From a virus, in the IMG/VR virus record IMGVR_UViG_3300029775_000009, positions 1-36,221 of that record: a stretch of DNA of 36,221 nucleotides; one strand, 5' to 3'. Shown piece after piece: positions 6,708 to 22,083 of the stretch. The position numbers and the translations under genes were made by a program. Below the pieces are notes generated by a model, which saw only the letters and a list, made by a program, of their open reading frames with translations, was not told the origin of the DNA and made no database searches. Numbering within the stretch: position 1 is the first letter of the stretch; each line of letters opens with the position of its first letter.

Positions 6708-7139
6708 ATGAGTATTATGACAGTTATTGTGATTGCTATTGTGGCAGTCGCTATTGTAGCTGTTTGCTATACCTGTATTTATCTTGCAAAGCACGGAATT
6801 AATGTACAGGGTGGACTGCAGACGGCAGATGCAGGGCTGACTATCGCTAATACCGTAACTGACACACTGAAAGCCGCTATGCCTAATAACAAGGCCATAA
6901 GCGTAATTGATAAGGTTGTCGATTACGCGCATACGGGAGTGCAGGCAGCCGAACAGATGGCAAAGTCCGGCCAGATTACAGCTGCACAGCGTAAGGAACA
7001 GGCAAACCAGTACATCACTACTGCGCTGAATTATGCAGGCATTGAAGTAACACCGGAAATTCAGACAGCAATTGACGGAGCGGTTGAGTGTGCTGTTGCG
7101 GCACTGCCAAAGTCTAATTTGCCCGTAAAGGTAGCCTAA
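6708..7139 (+). CDS. Holin, LL-H family-like
   Basis: 143 aa with an N-terminal TM segment (IMTVIVIAIVAVAIVAVCYTCIYL) and a long helical tail with a QRKEQA...GIEVTPE..IDGAVE pattern, as in Holin_LLH proteins. RBS GGAGG. It is the last gene before a bidirectional terminator. Confidence 0.65.
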   Translation: MSIMTVIVIAIVAVAIVAVCYTCIYLAKHGINVQGGLQTADAGLTIANTVTDTLKAAMPNNKAISVIDKVVDYAHTGVQAAEQMAKSGQITAAQRKEQANQYITTALNYAGIEVTPEIQTAIDGAVECAVAALPKSNLPVKVA

Positions 7140-7154
7140 ATCAAATGATTCTAT

Positions 7155-7196
7155 AAAAATCCCCCGGTTTCCTTAATTGGAGATCGGGGGATTTTT
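7155..7196. terminator. Bidirectional rho-independent terminator
   Basis: AAAAATCCCCCG (7155-7166) pairs with CGGGGGATTTTT (7185-7196). A-run and T-run flanks allow function on both strands. The stop of the minus-strand RHH gene lies in the loop. Confidence 0.7.
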
Positions 7197-7382
7197 TGTA
7201 AGTCGTTCTATTCTTTCACGAATTGAGGTAGTAATAAATTCATTTAGTGTTTCATTATTTTCAGCCGCTAAAGCTTTTATTTTGGCTTTATATCCTTTCG
7301 GCACATAAGGGTATAGCCTGTCATATGACTTATAATTATATTTTGTGTGCGCCTTTATAGCCGCCTTAGTTGCTTTTGGCAT
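7173..7382 (-). CDS. Ribbon-helix-helix (Arc/CopG-like) regulator, divergent from the Cas-like operon
   Basis: 69 aa. YPYVPKGYKAKIKALAAENNETLNEFITTSIRERIERL fits a beta-strand/helix/helix RHH pattern. It is divergent from, and shares its control region with, the 7486 operon. Confidence 0.6.
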   Translation of the reverse strand: MPKATKAAIKAHTKYNYKSYDRLYPYVPKGYKAKIKALAAENNETLNEFITTSIRERIERLTKNPPISN

Positions 7383-7434
7383 TTTTAATCACCCGATTAT
7401 TTATTATGCACTAAAAACATTATTAGCGCAAGTA

Positions 7435-7463
7435 TTGTATATGATAACGTTATCATATATAAT
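7435..7463 (+). promoter_or_regulatory. Sigma-70-type promoter with palindromic operator for the 7486-10709 operon
   Basis: TTGTAT (7435-7440), a 17-nt spacer, then TATAAT (7458-7463). The spacer holds the perfect 14-bp palindrome TGATAACGTTATCA (7442-7455). The ATG at 7486 follows RBS AAGGAAGTGG. Confidence 0.6.
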
Positions 7464-7485
7464 AGATATAAAGGAAGTGGCAATA

Positions 7486-8469
7486 ATGTATGAAAGTGAG
7501 ATAGCTTTTGCCAGACGCCTTATTTCAGGCAGGCTGGAATTTACAGGGGAGTGTGCAGCTTGTGGTGGCGTGCTTGTAGAACCATCAACAATAAAAAAAG
7601 CCTGTGGTTCAAAATTTACAGACTATTCAGGACTAATCAAGTTTGGTGGTAATGAAATTTGTGAATCATGCGTAAAGCTCATGGATAAGAAAAATCTGTC
7701 AAAAGTAATTTACTATCATGACGGAATCTGTGAGCGCGGCAGATTTGATATAGCTTGGTCGGTAATGACAACTCCACCGAAAGGCAAAAATTTCATTTTA
7801 TCAGTACCATATTCATTTAAAAAACATCATTTGCTTTCTGCCGGAATTAGTACATCTGAAAATATGCTGATTGGAACAGATGATGGAACAGTACATTATA
7901 TTTTCAAACGCGATAAAAAAGTGCTTGAAGCTGTAAAACAATCGTCTGTTGATGGTGTACCACGGGCGCAGGTAATGAACGGCAATTATACTGCTATGAC
8001 CATGTCAAAGTTTGGGGAAGACTATATAAGGAATTTGGAAAGCATTGTAAAGGATGCGCGCGAAAGCGGATTGCTTAAATTAGCGTTTCGCGCGCTTCCA
8101 AAGCAAGAAAAAATCAAATATTGCAAAGAGGTAATAGACATGCTTGATGCTTCAGATGTAAAAGCAAGTGAAATTCTTGCACAGGTTGCATATAATTCTG
8201 GGCTTCGTGTAACGCGTGGCTTGGATTTTTGGAATCAGATTTTTCCACACAGAGTGTACAGATTCAGAAAGTTTGCATTAAATGATATGGTAAACAGGCT
8301 ATGCGAACAATTTGCAATTCCACCACAATTTATGCAGGGCATTATTGCACAGCTTGAAAGCTTGACGGATAAAGAAAGTAAGCAAATACAAAAGTCAATT
8401 GAAAACCATACTCAACTTGTTCTTGGAATTGCGTATGAAAAAGTTAAGGAGATAAAGAAAAATGCTTAA
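7486..8469 (+). CDS. Zinc-ribbon protein, candidate Cas8-like/Csf1-like large subunit
   Basis: I start this gene at ATG 7486 (RBS AAGGAAG at 7471-7477), not at the track's 7345, which would read through the promoter. It is 327 aa with C23-x2-C26 ... C40 ... C59-x2-C62 (nt 7552-7671), then an alpha-helical C-terminal half. It is the first gene of an operon whose next two genes carry RAMP hallmarks. Confidence 0.4.
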   Translation: MYESEIAFARRLISGRLEFTGECAACGGVLVEPSTIKKACGSKFTDYSGLIKFGGNEICESCVKLMDKKNLSKVIYYHDGICERGRFDIAWSVMTTPPKGKNFILSVPYSFKKHHLLSAGISTSENMLIGTDDGTVHYIFKRDKKVLEAVKQSSVDGVPRAQVMNGNYTAMTMSKFGEDYIRNLESIVKDARESGLLKLAFRALPKQEKIKYCKEVIDMLDASDVKASEILAQVAYNSGLRVTRGLDFWNQIFPHRVYRFRKFALNDMVNRLCEQFAIPPQFMQGIIAQLESLTDKESKQIQKSIENHTQLVLGIAYEKVKEIKKNA

Positions 8470-9340
8470 TGTAAATGAAAGAAAGATTACCGCTACAATT
8501 ACTGCTGTATCGCCAATTTCTCATGCTGGATTTTCAGAAGTCAGTACAGGAAATTCTATGATGTTTCGGCGTGTGCCATGCGTATCGCTCCCGGGGTTTC
8601 CGGAAATTCCGGTTGTTTCCGGAAATGCACTGCGCGGAATTATGCGCCGCAGGCTTATGACAGAAGTATATAACAAAGTAGGATTTACATTTGAAAAGTT
8701 TAAAGATGTGTTTTCATCTGAACAGACAGCAAAGCGAGCATGGGATAAACTCTATGCGGCATTATTTTGCGGCGGTACACTTAATGGAAAATTAGAGGAT
8801 ACAACAGACCCTATTGAATTGCGAAAAATAAGAGAACAGTTTCCGGCGCTTTCATTGCTTGGTTCAGCGCTTTATACAAAGATGTTGCCCGGTATGGCAC
8901 AAATTGGCTTTGCTTGGCTGATTTGTGACGAATCAATACGAGGCGAACTTGTAACCAAAACAGATGATACACTTGTGATTAAAGCAGAAGATGCAATCAC
9001 TGAAATTGGTCAGGTAAGGCACATTGACCGTGAAAATGCTGACCCGGAGATAACAGGTGTTACGCCAATGCCGATCACAATTGAATGTCTTGCACCCGGT
9101 GCTTCATTACAATCAAATATTTCGCTTTTGCCGCAGACGACAAGTATAGAAAAATCATGTCTCATTCATGGCTTAAAGCTAATTGACCATATTGGTGGAA
9201 AACTTAGTAGCGGATATGGCGCAGTTAAAATGCATATAACTGAAAACGATGACGACGAATATACAAGCTGGATTAAAGACAGTTCAAACAATGAAACGTT
9301 TGAAAACTTTCTTATTGAGATGGCGAAGGGAATGATTTAA
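8462..9340 (+). CDS. RAMP protein, Cas7-like (Csf2/Csm3-type backbone subunit candidate)
   Basis: 292 aa. Motifs in order: ITATITAVSPISHAG; IPVVSGNALRGIMRRRL (nt 8606-8656), resembling the P-G-S-[SA]-L-[KR]-G-x-[LM]-R motif of Csm3/Cmr4/Csf2; LFCGGTL; FPALSLLGSA; and a C-terminal glycine-rich loop IGGKLSSGYGAV (nt 9191-9226). The gene starts 8 nt inside the upstream gene. Confidence 0.55.
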   Translation: MLNVNERKITATITAVSPISHAGFSEVSTGNSMMFRRVPCVSLPGFPEIPVVSGNALRGIMRRRLMTEVYNKVGFTFEKFKDVFSSEQTAKRAWDKLYAALFCGGTLNGKLEDTTDPIELRKIREQFPALSLLGSALYTKMLPGMAQIGFAWLICDESIRGELVTKTDDTLVIKAEDAITEIGQVRHIDRENADPEITGVTPMPITIECLAPGASLQSNISLLPQTTSIEKSCLIHGLKLIDHIGGKLSSGYGAVKMHITENDDDEYTSWIKDSSNNETFENFLIEMAKGMI

Positions 9341-10044
9341 TGGTATACAAAATCATTTTTCAGATGTTAGCACCTACATGTTTGCGCGGGCATATTCATC
9401 TTGATGCATTACTTTCAGCAGTGAATCCAGCGATGCACAAAAAGCAAACTATTGTAAATTGTATGAGTGCAAAAAATGATAATTTGTTTTCCGCGCCATT
9501 GCCATTGGCTAAAGTAAAAATTCATGACAAGTGGATATGGTGCTGCAGTTCAGAAATTTTGCCTCCGGAAGCAAAAATGTCAACAGAAACATATACAAAG
9601 CGTCGTACACCTGAAGATGTAATGATGTTACAGCGCCGGTTTGTCCGCGGCTCAACAGCCATGCGTGATAGAATGATTAAAAATTCTGTTATACTTACCC
9701 CAACAATCAACTTTTTATGCGCTGCGGATGAAAGGTCAAAGCCATGGCTTGAAAAGCTGGTCAATGACGTATTTGAAATTGGAAGCTTAAGAAAGCAGGG
9801 ATACGGGGAAGTGAAAAGTGTTTCTGTTTGGGAAACAAACTTCGACTGGAAAGACTGTTTACTTTCGCCAAAAGGGAAAGCATTACGCAGAATACCGATA
9901 GAAATGTTGAAATCAGCGTCTTCATGCTCACTTAACACAATAAAACCACCATATTGGATGCACGCGTATGATGAATTTTCAATTGATGTTGGACAAGAGA
10001 TGGAACTGAATCCGGAGGTGGAGTGTACTTGCCACAGTATGTAA
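9340..10044 (+). CDS. RAMP protein, Cas5-like (Csf3-type candidate)
   Basis: 234 aa. It has an N-terminal HIHLDALLSAV (nt 9391-9423) and a glycine-rich loop IGSLRKQGYGEV (nt 9778-9813). Its ATG overlaps the upstream TAA by 1 nt. Confidence 0.45.
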   Translation: MVYKIIFQMLAPTCLRGHIHLDALLSAVNPAMHKKQTIVNCMSAKNDNLFSAPLPLAKVKIHDKWIWCCSSEILPPEAKMSTETYTKRRTPEDVMMLQRRFVRGSTAMRDRMIKNSVILTPTINFLCAADERSKPWLEKLVNDVFEIGSLRKQGYGEVKSVSVWETNFDWKDCLLSPKGKALRRIPIEMLKSASSCSLNTIKPPYWMHAYDEFSIDVGQEMELNPEVECTCHSM

Positions 10045-10709
10045 TTCCGAGGTGTCCGGACAAAAAGAACGAAACTGATATTGAAAATTTGATACCACTT
10101 AACAGGCTTTTTGCTTACCCGTCGGAGCCGTTTCTTCAAAATGGAGGGTACACAATACTTGATAGCGGCGCTTATGGACTATACCAGCGTGGTAGCAGCA
10201 TCAACTTGAACTATATGAAAAAATTAAGTGCACATTATGAAAAATATGCAACTGAAAATGTGTTTTGCGTTGCACCTGATGAATATTTAAATCCAATTGC
10301 TTCCCTGAGTAATTTCATAAGCTGGAAAAATTCAAAACTATTTCAGTCAGTTTGTCCGGTTATACAAAGCTGGCATGAAAAACAAATCGATGAAAATTGT
10401 ATAATGAAGCAAGTAAAATTTTATCGAAAAAATACGAATCAAGATAGAATATTCTTTTCAAATAATGCCCTTACTGCCAGTGAGGCAAGCTTCTTTGGAC
10501 TGAATGAGATATTCAGAAAGATTCATCAAGCAGGGTTTAAGTGGATTCATGATCTTGGCGCAGGGTGGAGTCTTAAAGACATTAAGGAATGGAAAAAATT
10601 CGAGCAGCTGGACAGCATGGACAGTATTGCTTATTACAGCACAAAAAATATAAACGAGTTTGGTTCACTCAATCCATTTGAAAACGTAAAATCAATCTGT
10701 CGATTGTAA
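10023..10709 (+). CDS. tRNA-guanine transglycosylase / DpdA-like (TGT superfamily) enzyme candidate
   Basis: 228 aa. Four motifs occur in the order found in TGT enzymes (DSGGFQ ... FDEC ... [LM]GVG ... DxFD). They are ILDSGAYGL (D47, nt 10161), VAPDEY (D86), IHDLGAGW (aa 175-182) and LDSMDS (aa 196-201). The GTG start at 10023 (GGAGG at 10014-10018) overlaps the upstream gene by 22 nt; TTG 10029 is an alternative start. Confidence 0.5.
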   Translation: MYLPQYVIPRCPDKKNETDIENLIPLNRLFAYPSEPFLQNGGYTILDSGAYGLYQRGSSINLNYMKKLSAHYEKYATENVFCVAPDEYLNPIASLSNFISWKNSKLFQSVCPVIQSWHEKQIDENCIMKQVKFYRKNTNQDRIFFSNNALTASEASFFGLNEIFRKIHQAGFKWIHDLGAGWSLKDIKEWKKFEQLDSMDSIAYYSTKNINEFGSLNPFENVKSICRL

Positions 10710-10742
10710 AAGTCAAAGCCATAGACAACTGTATGTAACATC

Positions 10743-10782
10743 AAAAAAAAGCCCAACGGAAATTAATTCGTTGGGCTTTTTT
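10743..10782. terminator. Bidirectional rho-independent terminator
   Basis: An A8 run, GCCCAACG (10751-10758), a loop, CGTTGGGC (10769-10776), then a T6 run. It closes the + operon and the convergent minus-strand operon. Confidence 0.8.
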
Positions 10783-10832
10783 ATTTTCCAGAATGGAGAG
10801 ATTAAAAATACAATATTATTATACTATCTGTG

Positions 10833-11246
10833 TCAAGCTTCAGCGCCGTTTGTCAGTCCCATCAAAAACGCAGTACGTGCCGTATCAATGTCTTTTGAGC
10901 CTTTGCAAATTTCTAGCGGGGCATCGGATTTACTGATTAGGCGTTTTAAAAGTAACGACTCAAATTCGCTTGAATCTTTATGCTGCACGTCAATGAGCTG
11001 ATTGAAAAACGCATGTTCACTTTTTTTCAATCCTGCTGCCTTTGCTGCCGCTATTCCAGCGTTATACATTTCTTCTTTCATTTGTAGCTCTCCTTTTTTC
11101 GCTTTAATATATGGTTCTTCCGAGTCAATGACCCAGTTTCGCCCAATTTTTTTGGCGGTTTTGAACCCGCCACGGCAAGCCTTTTGCCGGACGGAAATTG
11201 CTGCTTTACCGTGTGCAGCTGCGTATTTAGATAGACTAATTAGCAT
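10833..11246 (-). CDS. HTH DNA-binding protein (Aca-like position)
   Basis: 137 aa. The N-terminus ISLSKYAAAHGKAAISVRQKACRGGFKTAKKIGRNWVI resembles excisionase/MerR-type HTH domains. It is the second gene of a two-gene minus-strand operon. Confidence 0.5.
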   Translation of the reverse strand: MLISLSKYAAAHGKAAISVRQKACRGGFKTAKKIGRNWVIDSEEPYIKAKKGELQMKEEMYNAGIAAAKAAGLKKSEHAFFNQLIDVQHKDSSEFESLLLKRLISKSDAPLEICKGSKDIDTARTAFLMGLTNGAEA

Positions 11247-12204: not shown

Positions 12205-12347
12205 TTAAGCACCTCCTTTATAACCCTGCAATTCCACGACAGCTGCAATTCTTCCATGCTCGTTCCACACTGCATTGGCAGGAATGGATACACCGCTCCT
12301 GCCGGTGCTGCCGGCTTTTTAATTTTGTACTTTTGCTCTGCCATCAT
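12201..12347 (-). CDS. Possible 48-aa ORF coupled by an ATGA overlap to the RHH gene
   Basis: MMAEQKYKIKKPAAPAGAVYPFLPMQCGTSMEELQLSWNCRVIKEVLK*. Its stop overlaps the RHH ATG. There is no convincing RBS. Confidence 0.25.
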   Translation of the reverse strand: MMAEQKYKIKKPAAPAGAVYPFLPMQCGTSMEELQLSWNCRVIKEVLK

Positions 12348-12405
12348 CGGTGCTGGTGGAGCGGTTCCAGCAGACGCCCTTACGGGCGTTTCGGCTTGTA
12401 CTCCA

Positions 12406-21932: not shown

Positions 21933-22083
21933 AATCCCCACAATCCCCACAATCCCCACTGTTTCCGCAATACATACGTGCTATTTATAAGAGATATTTT
22001 TCTAAAATATTTTTCTAAAATATTTCAAAAAATATTTTTCCCTTATAGAGTTTTGGGGAGATTATGTGGGGATTGTGGGGATT
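21933..22083. repeat. Iteron cluster flanking an AT-rich repeat block: candidate replication origin
   Basis: AATCCCCAC occurs three times in perfect tandem (21933-21959). The inverted GTGGGGATT occurs twice in tandem (22066-22083), with degenerate copies at about 22053 and 22151. Between them lies ATATTTTTCTAAA twice (21994-22019) plus more A/T tracts. Confidence 0.6.

Follow-up and report, generated by a model that had tools for sequence, protein, structure and literature searches.

What is a predicted enzyme of the guanine transglycosylase type doing among the CRISPR-Cas genes of a phage? The question is raised by a short ORF in a viral DNA stretch of 36,221 nucleotides (IMG/VR record IMGVR_UViG_3300029775_000009; "the window" refers to this whole stretch), whose product was likened in an earlier note to tRNA-guanine transglycosylases (TGT) and DpdA. 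Phage DpdA proteins form the subfamilies DpdA1-DpdA4, with gp03 of Enterobacteria phage 9g as an example, and bacterial DpdA belongs to the Dpd system. Of the CRISPR-Cas subtypes, type IV-B is to our knowledge the one least understood: array and nuclease are absent, the complex binds heterogeneous RNA, and a CysH-like enzyme whose role is not known is strictly associated with it.

The reading favoured here, to which we assign a probability of about 0.6, is that the DpdA-like protein exchanges guanine for 7-deazaguanine as the enzyme dedicated to a type IV-B-like effector, which is carried by a phage and has no array. The effector would consist of a Csf1-Cas11 fusion, Csf2/Cas7 and Csf3/Cas5, with the enzyme in the slot that the CysH-like protein holds in canonical type IV-B, and the 228-aa protein would be a minimal, catalytically competent member of the DpdA/TGT superfamily.

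A pared-down csf cassette and its type IV-B relatives

The window comes from a temperate phage that carries a pared-down, array-less type IV CRISPR-Cas effector, in which the DpdA-like gene is the fourth gene (Table 1).

Table 1. Features of the csf cassette and its flanks in the window
Feature	Position	Strand	Basis
GC-rich hairpin with A/T-run flanks	7155..7196	.	inverted repeat, 18-nt arms, 89% complementary
69-aa ribbon-helix-helix-like small protein, divergent from csf1	7173..7382	-	weak NCBIfam YlcI_YnfO_N match, E 1.9e-4, sub-cut-off
32-nt near-perfect palindrome in the AT-rich spacer directly 5' of the csf1 start	7433..7464	.	16-nt arms, no gap, 94% complementary
Csf1 (Cas8-like large subunit of type IV, with CxxC...CxxC), extended at the C-terminus by a fused Cas11-like small-subunit domain	7486..8469	+	PADLOC, family HMM
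Csf2 (type IV Cas7 backbone subunit)	8462..9340	+	PADLOC typeIV_Cas7 Csf2_0_IV, E 2.6e-42; PHROG 22746, E 3.6e-19
Csf3 (type IV Cas5)	9340..10044	+	PADLOC typeIV_Cas5 Csf3_0_IV, E 2.1e-25; NCBIfam cas5_csf3, E 2.5e-14, sub-cut-off
Minimal DpdA/TGT-superfamily (beta/alpha)8 transglycosylase-like enzyme (predicted)	10023..10709	+	AF2, BFVD, hhalign, conservation, csf linkage
Perfect 14-bp hairpin with A-run and T-run flanks	10745..10782	.	inverted repeat, 100% complementary, 10-nt loop

The likely start of csf1 is the ATG at 7486, which follows AAGGAAG; the longest ORF, from the GTG at 7345, overlaps the divergent small gene. In the 374-aa ORF, the PADLOC model typeIV_Cas8 Csf1_0_IV covers residues 55-257 (E 2.8e-21) and the Cas11 HMM built from the family covers 276-372 (E 1e-17), and stand-alone homologues of this fused Cas11 domain are themselves recognised by PADLOC typeIV_Cas11 (1e-10 to 8e-16). 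The csf2 gene overlaps csf1 by 8 nt, and the csf3 start codon and the csf2 stop codon share one base. The Csf proteins of the window score far below the NCBIfam equivalog cut-offs. On the left, the GC-rich hairpin is probably a bidirectional terminator, at which the lysis block ends from one side and the divergent small gene from the other, and it marks the boundary of the cassette. The 69-aa protein is possibly a cassette regulator, and the palindrome in front of csf1 may be operator-like. On the right, the perfect hairpin is predicted to be a bidirectional intrinsic terminator that bounds the cassette.

No CRISPR array or repeat-spacer structure was found in the window, and neither PADLOC nor the best 25 of the 31 Pfam families matched by its 41 ORFs contained a Cas6, helicase, nuclease or adaptation gene. 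Similarly, arrays, mini-arrays and conserved guide RNAs were not found within 10 kb of the cassette in 39 related loci, where the sole array candidate (L033/L034) turned out to be a collagen-like coding repeat. The absence of an array or guide RNA from the window and its relatives counts against the favoured reading.

Csf2 of the window is 39-45% identical to the Csf2 proteins of cassettes with a CysH-like gene, whereas its identity to most of the other Csf2 proteins linked to DpdA is just 22-32%. The CysH-like gene lies directly after csf3 in two of the CysH-type cassettes (L045, L046); in a third (L047), a few genes come in between. In the window, no cysH-like gene was found among the best 25 of the 31 Pfam families, and the slot after csf3 is taken by the DpdA-like gene. 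Since the nearest relatives of this Csf2 outside the DpdA group belong to canonical type IV-B cassettes, where a CysH-like gene follows csf3, the DpdA-like and CysH-like enzymes look like alternative accessories, the DpdA-like protein replacing the CysH-like one on a closely related effector backbone. The window shares with type IV-B the four effector components csf1, cas11, csf2 and csf3, the lack of a CRISPR array, Cas6, helicase, nuclease and adaptation module, the residence on mobile elements including prophages, and an accessory enzyme gene directly 3' of csf3. It differs from type IV-B in that the defining cysH-like gene gives way to the DpdA-like gene and in that Cas11 is fused to Csf1; some DpdA-type relatives also add QueT or YhhQ, a 306-316-aa protein, or Cas6/Cas6f. 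Type IV-A effectors, too, have no nuclease, reside on mobile elements and work together with an accessory enzyme that was recruited; crosstalk with host arrays and Cas6 is also seen in type IV-A. However, type IV-A (a Csf complex with the DinG helicase) comes with an array and a Cas6, is without Cas11, and works by helicase-assisted transcriptional interference, whereas the accessory in the window is a predicted base-exchange enzyme and no array accompanies it.

Fold, homology and active site of the DpdA-like protein

The DpdA-like ORF runs from a GTG start, located 6 bases 3' of a GGAGG Shine-Dalgarno sequence, to a TAA stop. It was reported earlier to begin 22 nt inside a Cas5-like gene; the measured overlap with the ORF at 9340..10044 is exactly this, and PADLOC identifies that ORF as a type IV Csf3/Cas5 gene. 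The four motifs proposed for the protein are also found at the claimed residues, namely, L-D47-S-G-A-Y, A-P-D86-E-Y, H176-D-L-G-A-G-W and D197-S-M-D200-S. They are not chance resemblances, as the ORF has many homologues (72 clusters at 90% identity; 114 representatives at 50% identity) and the residues are conserved among its full-length relatives.

Curated libraries do not recognise the protein. In Pfam (including PF01702 TGT and PF23859 DpdA), NCBIfam, PADLOC and PHROGs, the only match at E<=1 was the sub-threshold Pfam family DUF4437 (E 0.1). For Pfam TGT and DpdA this test is insensitive, because the validated 9g DpdA likewise gives no Pfam match. A single relative matches Pfam TGT (E 0.09), and the Pfam scan of 40 relatives yielded scattered noise only. 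PDB sequence searches, with the single 228-aa protein and with the family profile, gave no meaningful match, and blastn and tblastn searches against 50,697 phage records matched neither the cassette nor the DpdA-like protein. The absence of a curated-model match is counted against the favoured reading.

The AF2 model of the protein is a (beta/alpha)8 TIM barrel with eight strand/helix units (pLDDT 97.5), which is the fold expected from the earlier assignment, and its closest viral matches are, with few exceptions, DpdA/TGT-like phage proteins (best matches in BFVD: E 7.5e-7, TM 0.60-0.68). Nine of the 26 BFVD matches at E<=0.001 are annotated as queuine tRNA-ribosyltransferases, which make up nearly all of the annotated ones, while the remainder are mostly unannotated phage proteins, including one of phage nt-1, which is known to have a DpdA2. 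In PDB Foldseek, TGT is among the top matches (E 3.5e-4, TM 0.5-0.58), interleaved with TrpA, DHDPS and other barrels; by itself this search does not separate TGT from other TIM barrels, which counts against the favoured reading. A Cas6/Csf5 identity for the fourth gene was rejected, given the TIM barrel fold and the presence of real Cas6 homologues as separate genes in two related loci (L021, L037).

Profile comparisons lead from this family to a validated enzyme. In hhalign, the DpdA-like family aligns with an intermediate family at 99.8% (E 1e-27), and the intermediates align with the phage 9g DpdA family at 98.9% (E 1e-17); the direct comparison of the DpdA-like and 9g DpdA families reaches 53% (E 1.4e-4) across 151 columns, all motifs being in register and their spacings resembling those of 9g DpdA. 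Family alignments and the intermediate family were needed because the comparison with the single 9g DpdA sequence is weak (29%). Judged from these profiles, homology to the experimentally validated DpdA of phage 9g is transitive, via the intermediate family. The parallels drawn earlier to the TGT motifs DSGGF, xDEC, LMGVG and DxFD agree with this register. Two intermediates weakly match Pfam PF23859 DpdA. The gene of one intermediate adjoins Mom, a DNA methylase and a 2OG-oxygenase, and that of another adjoins a UvrD helicase and a PD-(D/E)xK protein, to which a second contig adds an N6/N4 methylase.

These results bear on the alternative that the protein is a generic TIM barrel (hydrolase, aldolase or structural subunit) with a function unrelated to TGT/DpdA and a convergent motif resemblance. 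Such a protein would explain why curated families give no match and why PDB Foldseek matches spread over many barrel families at a TM of about 0.5. Nevertheless, the strong profile chain to 9g DpdA, the identical order and spacing of the motifs, the annotation of the BFVD matches, the TGT-type CxCxxC...H kept in four family members, and the linkage of the cassette to transporters (both described below) make this alternative very improbable.

Conservation was counted in 135 full-length relatives. D47 (130/135), D86 (133/135) and D200 (134/135) are near-invariant, as expected of the Asp residues proposed earlier, and so are H176 (135/135) and G181 (134/135); position 51 is aromatic in 134/135. 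Position 115, with Q in 122 and H in 9 (Q/H 131/135), is a fifth conserved position beyond the motifs noted earlier and matches TGT Q203 and DpdA H181. Of the two Asp residues in the D197-S-M-D200-S motif, D197 is less conserved (104/135), which leaves D200 and not D197 as the candidate nucleophile. The alignments suggest candidate roles as acid/base for D47, base sandwich for Y51 and L178, base recognition for D86 and Q115, and nucleophile for D200.

In register with 9g DpdA, D47 in I-L-D-S-G-A-[FY] aligns to LDSGAF (compare D102 of Z. mobilis and D95 of S. Montevideo DpdA), D86 and position 115 align to D114 and H141 (compare D156/D130 and Q203/H181), and D200 in D-S-x-D-S aligns to the Asp of C-D-S-S (compare D280/D256, at the end of beta8). 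The conserved residues of the family map onto those that are essential in S. Montevideo DpdA, i.e., D95, D130, H181 and D256 (PMC10164549). The active site of the DpdA-like family is under purifying selection.

The Gly-rich beta6 loop of TGT/DpdA, which contacts the base and its 7-substituent (GGL; G229-G230 / G206-G207), is replaced by F-S-N-N in the window protein and by the consensus [FI]-S-N-[PN] in the family, and this counts against the favoured reading. The protein had been described as a minimal or divergent member without the canonical zinc Cys cluster; indeed, the C-terminal Zn site CxCxxC...H is missing from the 228-aa protein and from 132/135 relatives. It is kept in three divergent members (P0136, P0138 and P0139) and in P0165. 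Taken together, the protein resembles DpdA in its (beta/alpha)8 barrel, in the ordered LDSGAF, xD, PxxQ/H, HxxG and xDS motifs with spacing near-identical to that of 9g DpdA, and in the conserved catalytic Asp pair and base-recognition Asp; like phage DpdA, it is also phage-borne, and both frequently lack accompanying preQ0 synthesis genes and in some cases have YhhQ alongside. It differs from 9g DpdA in being approximately 90 residues shorter, in lacking the Zn site and in the change of the beta6 GGL to SN[PN], and from DpdA in general in not being recognised by the Pfam DpdA/TGT models.

The missing Zn subdomain recalls the protein-directed Cap10 of type IV CBASS, and this is also counted against the favoured reading. 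In both cases, a TGT-fold enzyme of the queuosine pathway has been recruited to a mobile immune or conflict system and has lost the Zn subdomain. However, Cap10 binds the deazaguanylated N-terminus of a CD-NTase and requires the QueC-like Cap9, whereas this cassette has neither a QueC-like gene nor a CD-NTase, and its partners are RNA-guided Cas proteins. By analogy, the DpdA-like protein might have lost nucleic-acid binding and might bind or transfer a 7-deazaguanine moiety on a protein, e.g., a Csf subunit, to regulate the complex. Its minimal size without the subdomain that stabilises nucleic-acid binding is in line with this, as is the nature of the alternative accessory, since CysH-like proteins are PP-loop enzymes and share that superfamily with the QueC-like Cap9. 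Even so, we consider it improbable: neither the window (best 25 of the 31 Pfam families) nor any DpdA-type cassette of the relatives showed a QueC-like or nucleotidyltransferase gene, the nearest relatives in sequence beyond the family itself are surrounded by DNA-modification genes, the proteins of the family are mildly basic (median pI 8.6), and the Zn motif persists in some divergent members.

Linkage to the csf genes and possible supply of the base

The DpdA-like gene lies within the csf1/cas11/csf2/csf3 cassette, on the same strand, in 39/39 loci (28/28 lineages at 80% identity). Among the 39 loci the gene order takes at least five arrangements, and the DpdA-like gene is found between csf genes in most of the 28 lineages, so that its position varies and the linkage is kept. 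Up to 39/60 cassette junctions in the relatives overlap; the true number may be lower, as the earliest start codon was used for each ORF. P0165, the most divergent family member, is also csf-linked. The earlier note had proposed a functional link to the Cas5-like gene; its place in the csf cassette in 28/28 lineages greatly strengthens this claim, with the amendment that the partner is the whole type IV-B-like effector and not only Cas5. Some cassettes of the relatives contain in addition Cas6/Cas6f or the 306-316-aa protein, which weakly matches Glyco_trans_1_2 (E 0.006) and has no match in PDB, NCBIfam or PADLOC. Unlike the Dpd system, the cassette contains no DpdB-like ParB-like ATPase, DpdC or DpdD-K that we could find.

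As stated earlier, preQ0 pathway genes are lacking in the window: FolE, QueC, QueD, QueE and transporter genes were found neither among the best 25 of the 31 Pfam families in the 41-ORF scan nor by phmmer with phage 9g pathway seeds. Queuosine-precursor transporters do occur inside the cassette in 4/28 lineages, with QueT in two (Pfam 9e-29 and 1.4e-27) and YhhQ in a further two (TIGR00697, 95-102 bits, where the cut-off is 51). That only 4/28 lineages have one, and the window none, is counted against the favoured reading. Searches near the cassette and transporter genes found no preQ1 riboswitches or other RNAs.

The transporters weigh on a further alternative, according to which the protein is an RNA-guided glycosylase only, which stops after the first half-reaction, excises guanine or a modified guanine from the nucleic acid that the Csf complex binds, and leaves an abasic site that blocks or destroys a competitor, with no 7-deazaguanine inserted. 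The lack of preQ0 synthesis or uptake genes in the window and the remodelled base-binding beta6 loop agree with this; moreover, type IV systems have no nuclease and require an effector activity of some kind (PMC12669027), and glycosylases are established antiviral effectors (10.1101/2025.10.29.685425). However, two unrelated transporter families have been recruited independently to the cassette in four lineages, which is hard to square with excision alone because no base would be consumed, and D86, Q115 and the aromatic/Leu sandwich are conserved as well as the nucleophile. Excision alone is therefore held to be unlikely, although it is the strongest of the alternatives weighed in these sections.

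It is also conceivable that the protein acts autonomously as a phage DpdA, modifying the whole phage genome to counter restriction as happens in 9g or CAjan, with a separate or merely regulatory role for the csf genes. DpdA phages without preQ0 genes are common and use host precursors, some with YhhQ (PMC6884629), and several cassettes of the relatives lie among DNA-metabolism and packaging genes. On the other hand, the gene is invariably part of a type IV csf operon and never stands alone as DpdA does (0/28 lineages with the gene outside the cassette), it keeps its linkage between csf genes in overlapping frames despite the shuffled position, and it replaces the CysH-like gene in an otherwise type IV-B operon. 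We regard an autonomous DpdA as less probable than excision alone and slightly more probable than the Cap10-like role.

A proposed guided base exchange and its implications

Under the favoured reading of a guanine-exchanging Csf subunit, the enzyme would associate physically with the Csf complex. The Csf proteins would assemble on RNA, which might be a crRNA supplied by a co-resident array or a small RNA of another kind, and the complex would bind complementary nucleic acid, either DNA or RNA, and present an unpaired guanine to the barrel enzyme. D200 would then displace the guanine to form a covalent ribosyl-enzyme intermediate, and D47 would activate an incoming 7-deazaguanine base, presumably of the preQ0/preQ1 type, which would take the place of guanine. 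This base would be drawn from the host queuosine pool and, in some relatives, imported by the cassette-encoded QueT or YhhQ. The outcome may be interference with competitors, marking or self-protection.

A more far-reaching proposal, which we advance tentatively and hold to be considerably less likely than the favoured reading, is that the cassette is a natural RNA-guided base writer. Here the Csf ribonucleoprotein, possibly loaded with crRNAs from host or co-resident arrays, would direct the DpdA-like enzyme to swap guanines for 7-deazaguanine at sequence-specified sites. If so, competing elements would be silenced or marked; alternatively, protospacers of the phage genome that are targeted by host CRISPR would be protected.

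The literature searched contained nothing relevant that links type IV CRISPR, Cas7/Cas5 or crRNA with a transglycosylase, DpdA or deazaguanine. The above results suggest a CRISPR variant not described before, which writes or removes bases instead of cutting. The replacement of the CysH-like protein by a recognisable guanine-exchange enzyme, sometimes accompanied by 7-deazaguanine importers, yields the testable idea that the Csf complex guides nucleic-acid modification. If this is true, the system would be the first CRISPR effector to act through the replacement of a base, and not through cleavage, signalling or steric blocking. With four genes and approximately 1,080 aa, it would offer a compact natural scaffold for programmable base exchange. 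The chemistry of 7-deazaguanine, known from tRNA, phage genomes, Dpd restriction-modification and CBASS protein conjugation, would thereby gain a fifth context. Finally, if the cassette is a base writer, the CysH-like enzyme of canonical type IV-B would perform an analogous guided modification of nucleic acids.

The DpdA-like protein and its predicted active site

The DpdA-like gene of the window encodes 228 aa from a GTG start with GGAGG six bases before it, and its overlap of 22 nt with the preceding Cas5-like gene, like its position, is as the earlier note had described. The protein has no meaningful match in Pfam, NCBIfam, PADLOC or PHROGs, and PDB sequence searches with it were empty. Its homologues fall into 72 clusters at 90% identity, all of them unnamed and lacking a Pfam domain, and only 114 matches came up when 1.84 billion representatives were searched exhaustively by HMM. 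The four motifs that the earlier note likened to those of tRNA-guanine transglycosylases (TGT) are present at the residues it assigned. In an alignment of 135 sequences, D47, D86, H176, G181 and D200 are each kept in 130-135, and Q or H occupies position 115 in 131; of the Asp residues proposed in the note, D47, D86 and D200 thus stand in at least 130 sequences, and D197, weaker than D200, stands in 104. On these sequence grounds, the gene is real and under selection.

AlphaFold2, supplied with a 40-sequence alignment, predicted a (beta/alpha)8 barrel (pLDDT 97.5, pTM 0.93). Fold comparison with the PDB was generic, with TGT structures from rank 2 (E 3.5e-4, TM 0.5-0.58) interspersed with TrpA, DHDPS and other barrels. 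Comparison with predicted viral structures was specific: the top match reached E 7.5e-7, the leading matches had TM 0.60-0.68, and 9 of the 26 matches at E<=0.001 are annotated as queuine tRNA-ribosyltransferase, the others being mostly unannotated phage proteins, including those of Vibrio phage nt-1 and Cellulophaga phage phiST. The fold is DpdA/TGT-like among predicted viral structures.

The same motif series recurs in the tail of the exhaustive search (E 1e-5 to 6e-4) in seven intermediates, P0169-P0174 and P0177, two of which weakly match Pfam PF23859 DpdA; these align with phage 9g DpdA at every catalytic column. In profile-profile comparison, the 228-aa family matches the intermediates at 99.8% (E 1e-27), the intermediates match the 9g DpdA family at 98.9% (E 1e-17), and the direct comparison of the two ends gives 53% (E 1.4e-4, 151 columns). 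The direct alignment places D47 with LDSGAF, D86 with D114, Q115 with H141, H176-x-L-G with VHGFG and D200 with CDSS, the motif spacings being 39/29/31/53 in the 228-aa family and 42/27/22/52 in 9g DpdA. In S. Montevideo DpdA the corresponding residues serve as acid/base (D95), in base recognition (D130 and H181), in the base sandwich (F99 and L236) and as nucleophile (D256), and either D95A or D256A abolishes exchange (PMC10164549). One intermediate adjoins Mom, a DNA methylase and a 2OG oxygenase, and another adjoins a UvrD helicase and a PD-(D/E)xK protein, with an N6/N4 methylase in a second contig; these are DNA-modification neighbourhoods.

Two superfamily features are missing: [FI]-S-N-[PN] stands in place of the Gly-rich beta6 loop, and the Zn subdomain is absent, no Zn-type Cys cluster being found in the window protein, as had been noted. 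Four divergent members of the family retain CxCxxC...H, which suggests secondary loss of this subdomain. From the profile chain, the catalytic columns in register and the viral structure matches, we conclude that the protein is a divergent, minimal member of the DpdA/TGT superfamily whose active site is predicted to be catalytically intact, in support of the earlier reading.

The cassette and its phage

By PADLOC, the three genes upstream encode type IV CRISPR-Cas effector subunits, as judged from Csf1/Cas8 (E 2.8e-21), Csf2/Cas7 (E 2.6e-42) and Csf3/Cas5 (E 2.1e-25). An HMM made from small ORFs located between csf1 and csf2 in relatives, ORFs that match PADLOC typeIV_Cas11, identifies the C-terminal 100 residues of Csf1 as a Cas11 domain (E 1e-17). 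All four cassette genes overlap each other. The 69-aa ORF and the palindrome listed in the table resemble a repressor gene and its operator controlling the cassette. G+C is 37-40% in the cassette (window 7001-11000) versus 47-57% elsewhere in the window, which fits a moron recently gained by horizontal transfer.

Features of the window and of compared loci (L numbers)
Feature	Sequence	Position	Strand	Remark
Hairpin terminator	window	7155-7196		cassette boundary
69-aa RHH/YlcI_YnfO-like ORF	window	7173-7382	-	divergent; immediately upstream of csf1
32-nt near-perfect palindrome	window	7433-7464		immediately upstream of csf1
csf1 start, ATG	window	7486		probable true start
csf3 (Cas5-like) ORF	window	9340-10044		
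DpdA-like ORF	window	10023-10709	+	
Hairpin terminator	window	10745-10782		cassette boundary
Type II hammerhead ribozyme match	window	12332-12396	-	39 bits vs gathering score 37; spans full-length model; within minus-strand lysogeny-side block
Iteron-like repeats	window	21933-22083		between two replication-module ORFs
Cas6f/Csy4-like or Cas6 endoribonuclease	L037	8849-9331		in cassette
Cas6f/Csy4-like or Cas6 endoribonuclease	L021	10681-11328		in cassette
306-316-aa conserved protein	L001	8825-9754		adjoins DpdA-like gene; also in L006, L010, L037, L039
PhdYeFM-PIN toxin-antitoxin pair	L043	2239-2861		inserted; separates cas11 from csf2 in a divergent cassette
Reduced cassette	L009	8729-10675		Brachyspira MAG
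PAPS-reductase-family gene	L014	3850-4719		Pfam 1.9e-21
PAPS-reductase-family gene	L018	4154-5023		Pfam 1.9e-21

The window represents a temperate Bacillota siphovirus, nearly complete, encoding portal, HK97 capsid, ClpP, TerL, Amidase_3, Rha and DUF927, its TerL being 67% identical to that of a 37-kb Terrisporobacter phage; the cassette lies between the lysis and lysogeny modules. The iteron-like repeats comprise AATCCCCAC three times, an AT-rich 13-mer 3.7 times and inverted TGTGGGGAT twice, and they probably mark the origin.

Relatives, accessory genes and type IV-B

Homologues were compared in 39 loci (28 IMG/VR viral contigs, seven metagenome contigs, the window and three GTDB MAGs of Brachyspira, Massilibacteroides and Phototrophicaceae), with csf genes detected by iterated HMMs built from the window's proteins. 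The functional link to the Cas5-like gene proposed in the earlier note gains strong support from them: same-strand csf genes stand beside the DpdA-like gene in 39/39 loci, representing 28 lineages at 80% identity, and the most divergent member (P0165) also lies within a csf cassette. The csf1-csf3 set is full everywhere except in L009, with csf3 only, and L016, cut by the contig end. Gene order is shuffled; the most frequent arrangement is Csf1-Cas11-Csf2-X-Csf3, where X is the DpdA-like gene, alongside X-first, X-last and further ones. Overlaps occur at up to 39 of the 60 X/csf junctions, an upper bound since ORFs were taken from the earliest start codon. Cas11 has a gene of its own or occurs as a fusion, either to the N-terminus of Csf2 or, in the window and L044, to the C-terminus of Csf1. 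An autonomous DpdA acting genome-wide is a less likely rival explanation of the enzyme found in these cassettes.

QueT lies inside the cassette in two lineages (Pfam 9e-29 and 1.4e-27) and YhhQ in two others (NCBIfam 'queuosine precursor transporter', 95-102 bits; cut-off 51). That importers of 7-deazaguanine precursors were recruited independently from two unrelated families is the strongest argument from context that the barrel enzyme consumes such a base. The window carries no preQ0 synthesis gene, as the earlier note had observed, and no uptake gene (phage 9g pathway seeds; best 25 of 31 Pfam families); this is ordinary, since preQ0 genes are also missing from many DpdA phages (PMC6884629).

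Cas6f lies inside the cassette in one lineage and Cas6 in another, neither with an array within 10 kb, which hints that these two use crRNAs from arrays elsewhere. No locus has a CRISPR array within 10 kb, and the window itself lacks arrays, mini-arrays and genes for Cas6, a helicase or adaptation. The 306-316-aa protein, unassigned and inside the cassette in five lineages, has a weak Glyco_trans_1_2 match (E 0.006) and none in PDB, NCBIfam or PADLOC; it is possibly a further base-modifying or base-salvage enzyme. In two homologues, P0064 (331 aa) and P0149 (298 aa), the DpdA-like domain follows an N-terminal segment from the zinc-finger part of Csf1; they may be real fusions or deletion products of decayed loci. 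The order in L009 is Csf3, a 215-aa CxxCxxCC-domain protein and the DpdA-like gene, with no Csf1 or Csf2 detected.

Type IV-B is defined by csf1, cas11, csf2, csf3 and a cysH-like gene of function not established, without an array (PMC8175902, PMC7038947), whereas the window has the DpdA-like gene after csf3. Close relatives of the window's Csf2 are few. The closest among those looked up (56% identity) is in L044, a phage with the window's layout and the DpdA-like gene after csf3. Next come L046 (45%), L045 (41%) and L047 (39%), which share the Csf1-Cas11 fusion and carry a CysH/PAPS-reductase-like gene directly 3' of csf3 (L045, L046) or a few genes downstream (L047), assigned by its PP-loop motif, precomputed PF01507 matches, a BrxP match (3.7e-6) and hhalign (95.4% to PAPS-reductase proteins). 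With the remaining DpdA-linked Csf2 proteins the window's shares only 22-32% identity, and it is nearer to the CysH-type Csf2 than to most DpdA-linked ones; the CysH-like gene and the DpdA-like gene therefore appear to be exchangeable accessories of one effector backbone. The lineage of L014 and L018 has a bona fide PAPS-reductase-family gene some 3 kb upstream of its DpdA-type cassette, so enzymes of both types can share one phage.

Putative guided base exchange

The best-supported reading is Csf-guided guanine exchange by the barrel enzyme. The Csf ribonucleoprotein would recognize the target and open the strands, and the barrel enzyme would carry out TGT-type double displacement at the exposed guanine, with D200 as nucleophile and D47 as acid/base; the inserted 7-deazaguanine base would be drawn from the queuosine pool of the host, or QueT or YhhQ would bring it in, as in some relatives. 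On the other hand, the enzyme might only excise the base, or it might have a Cap10-like role directed at protein. For guided exchange, we infer a complex between the Csf proteins and the barrel enzyme, and likewise the base used, the target (DNA or RNA) and the source of the guide RNA; it may serve, from a prophage moron, to interfere with competitors, or else to protect the phage itself in a guided manner.

The 2025 CRISPR classification makes no mention of TGT or DpdA (PMC12669027), the literature searched on type IV and CRISPR-linked genes describes no link between type IV CRISPR and TGT/DpdA, and full-text searches linking Cas7/Cas5, crRNA or type IV to transglycosylase, DpdA or deazaguanine gave nothing relevant. 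The observation in the earlier note is confirmed, with residue conservation, fold and profile homology in favour of its interpretation, and the DpdA-like gene is the signature gene of a type IV-B-like CRISPR-Cas variant, apparently undescribed and mainly on phages. What type IV-B systems do is a long-standing question, and this DpdA-type variant offers a concrete hypothesis on it.
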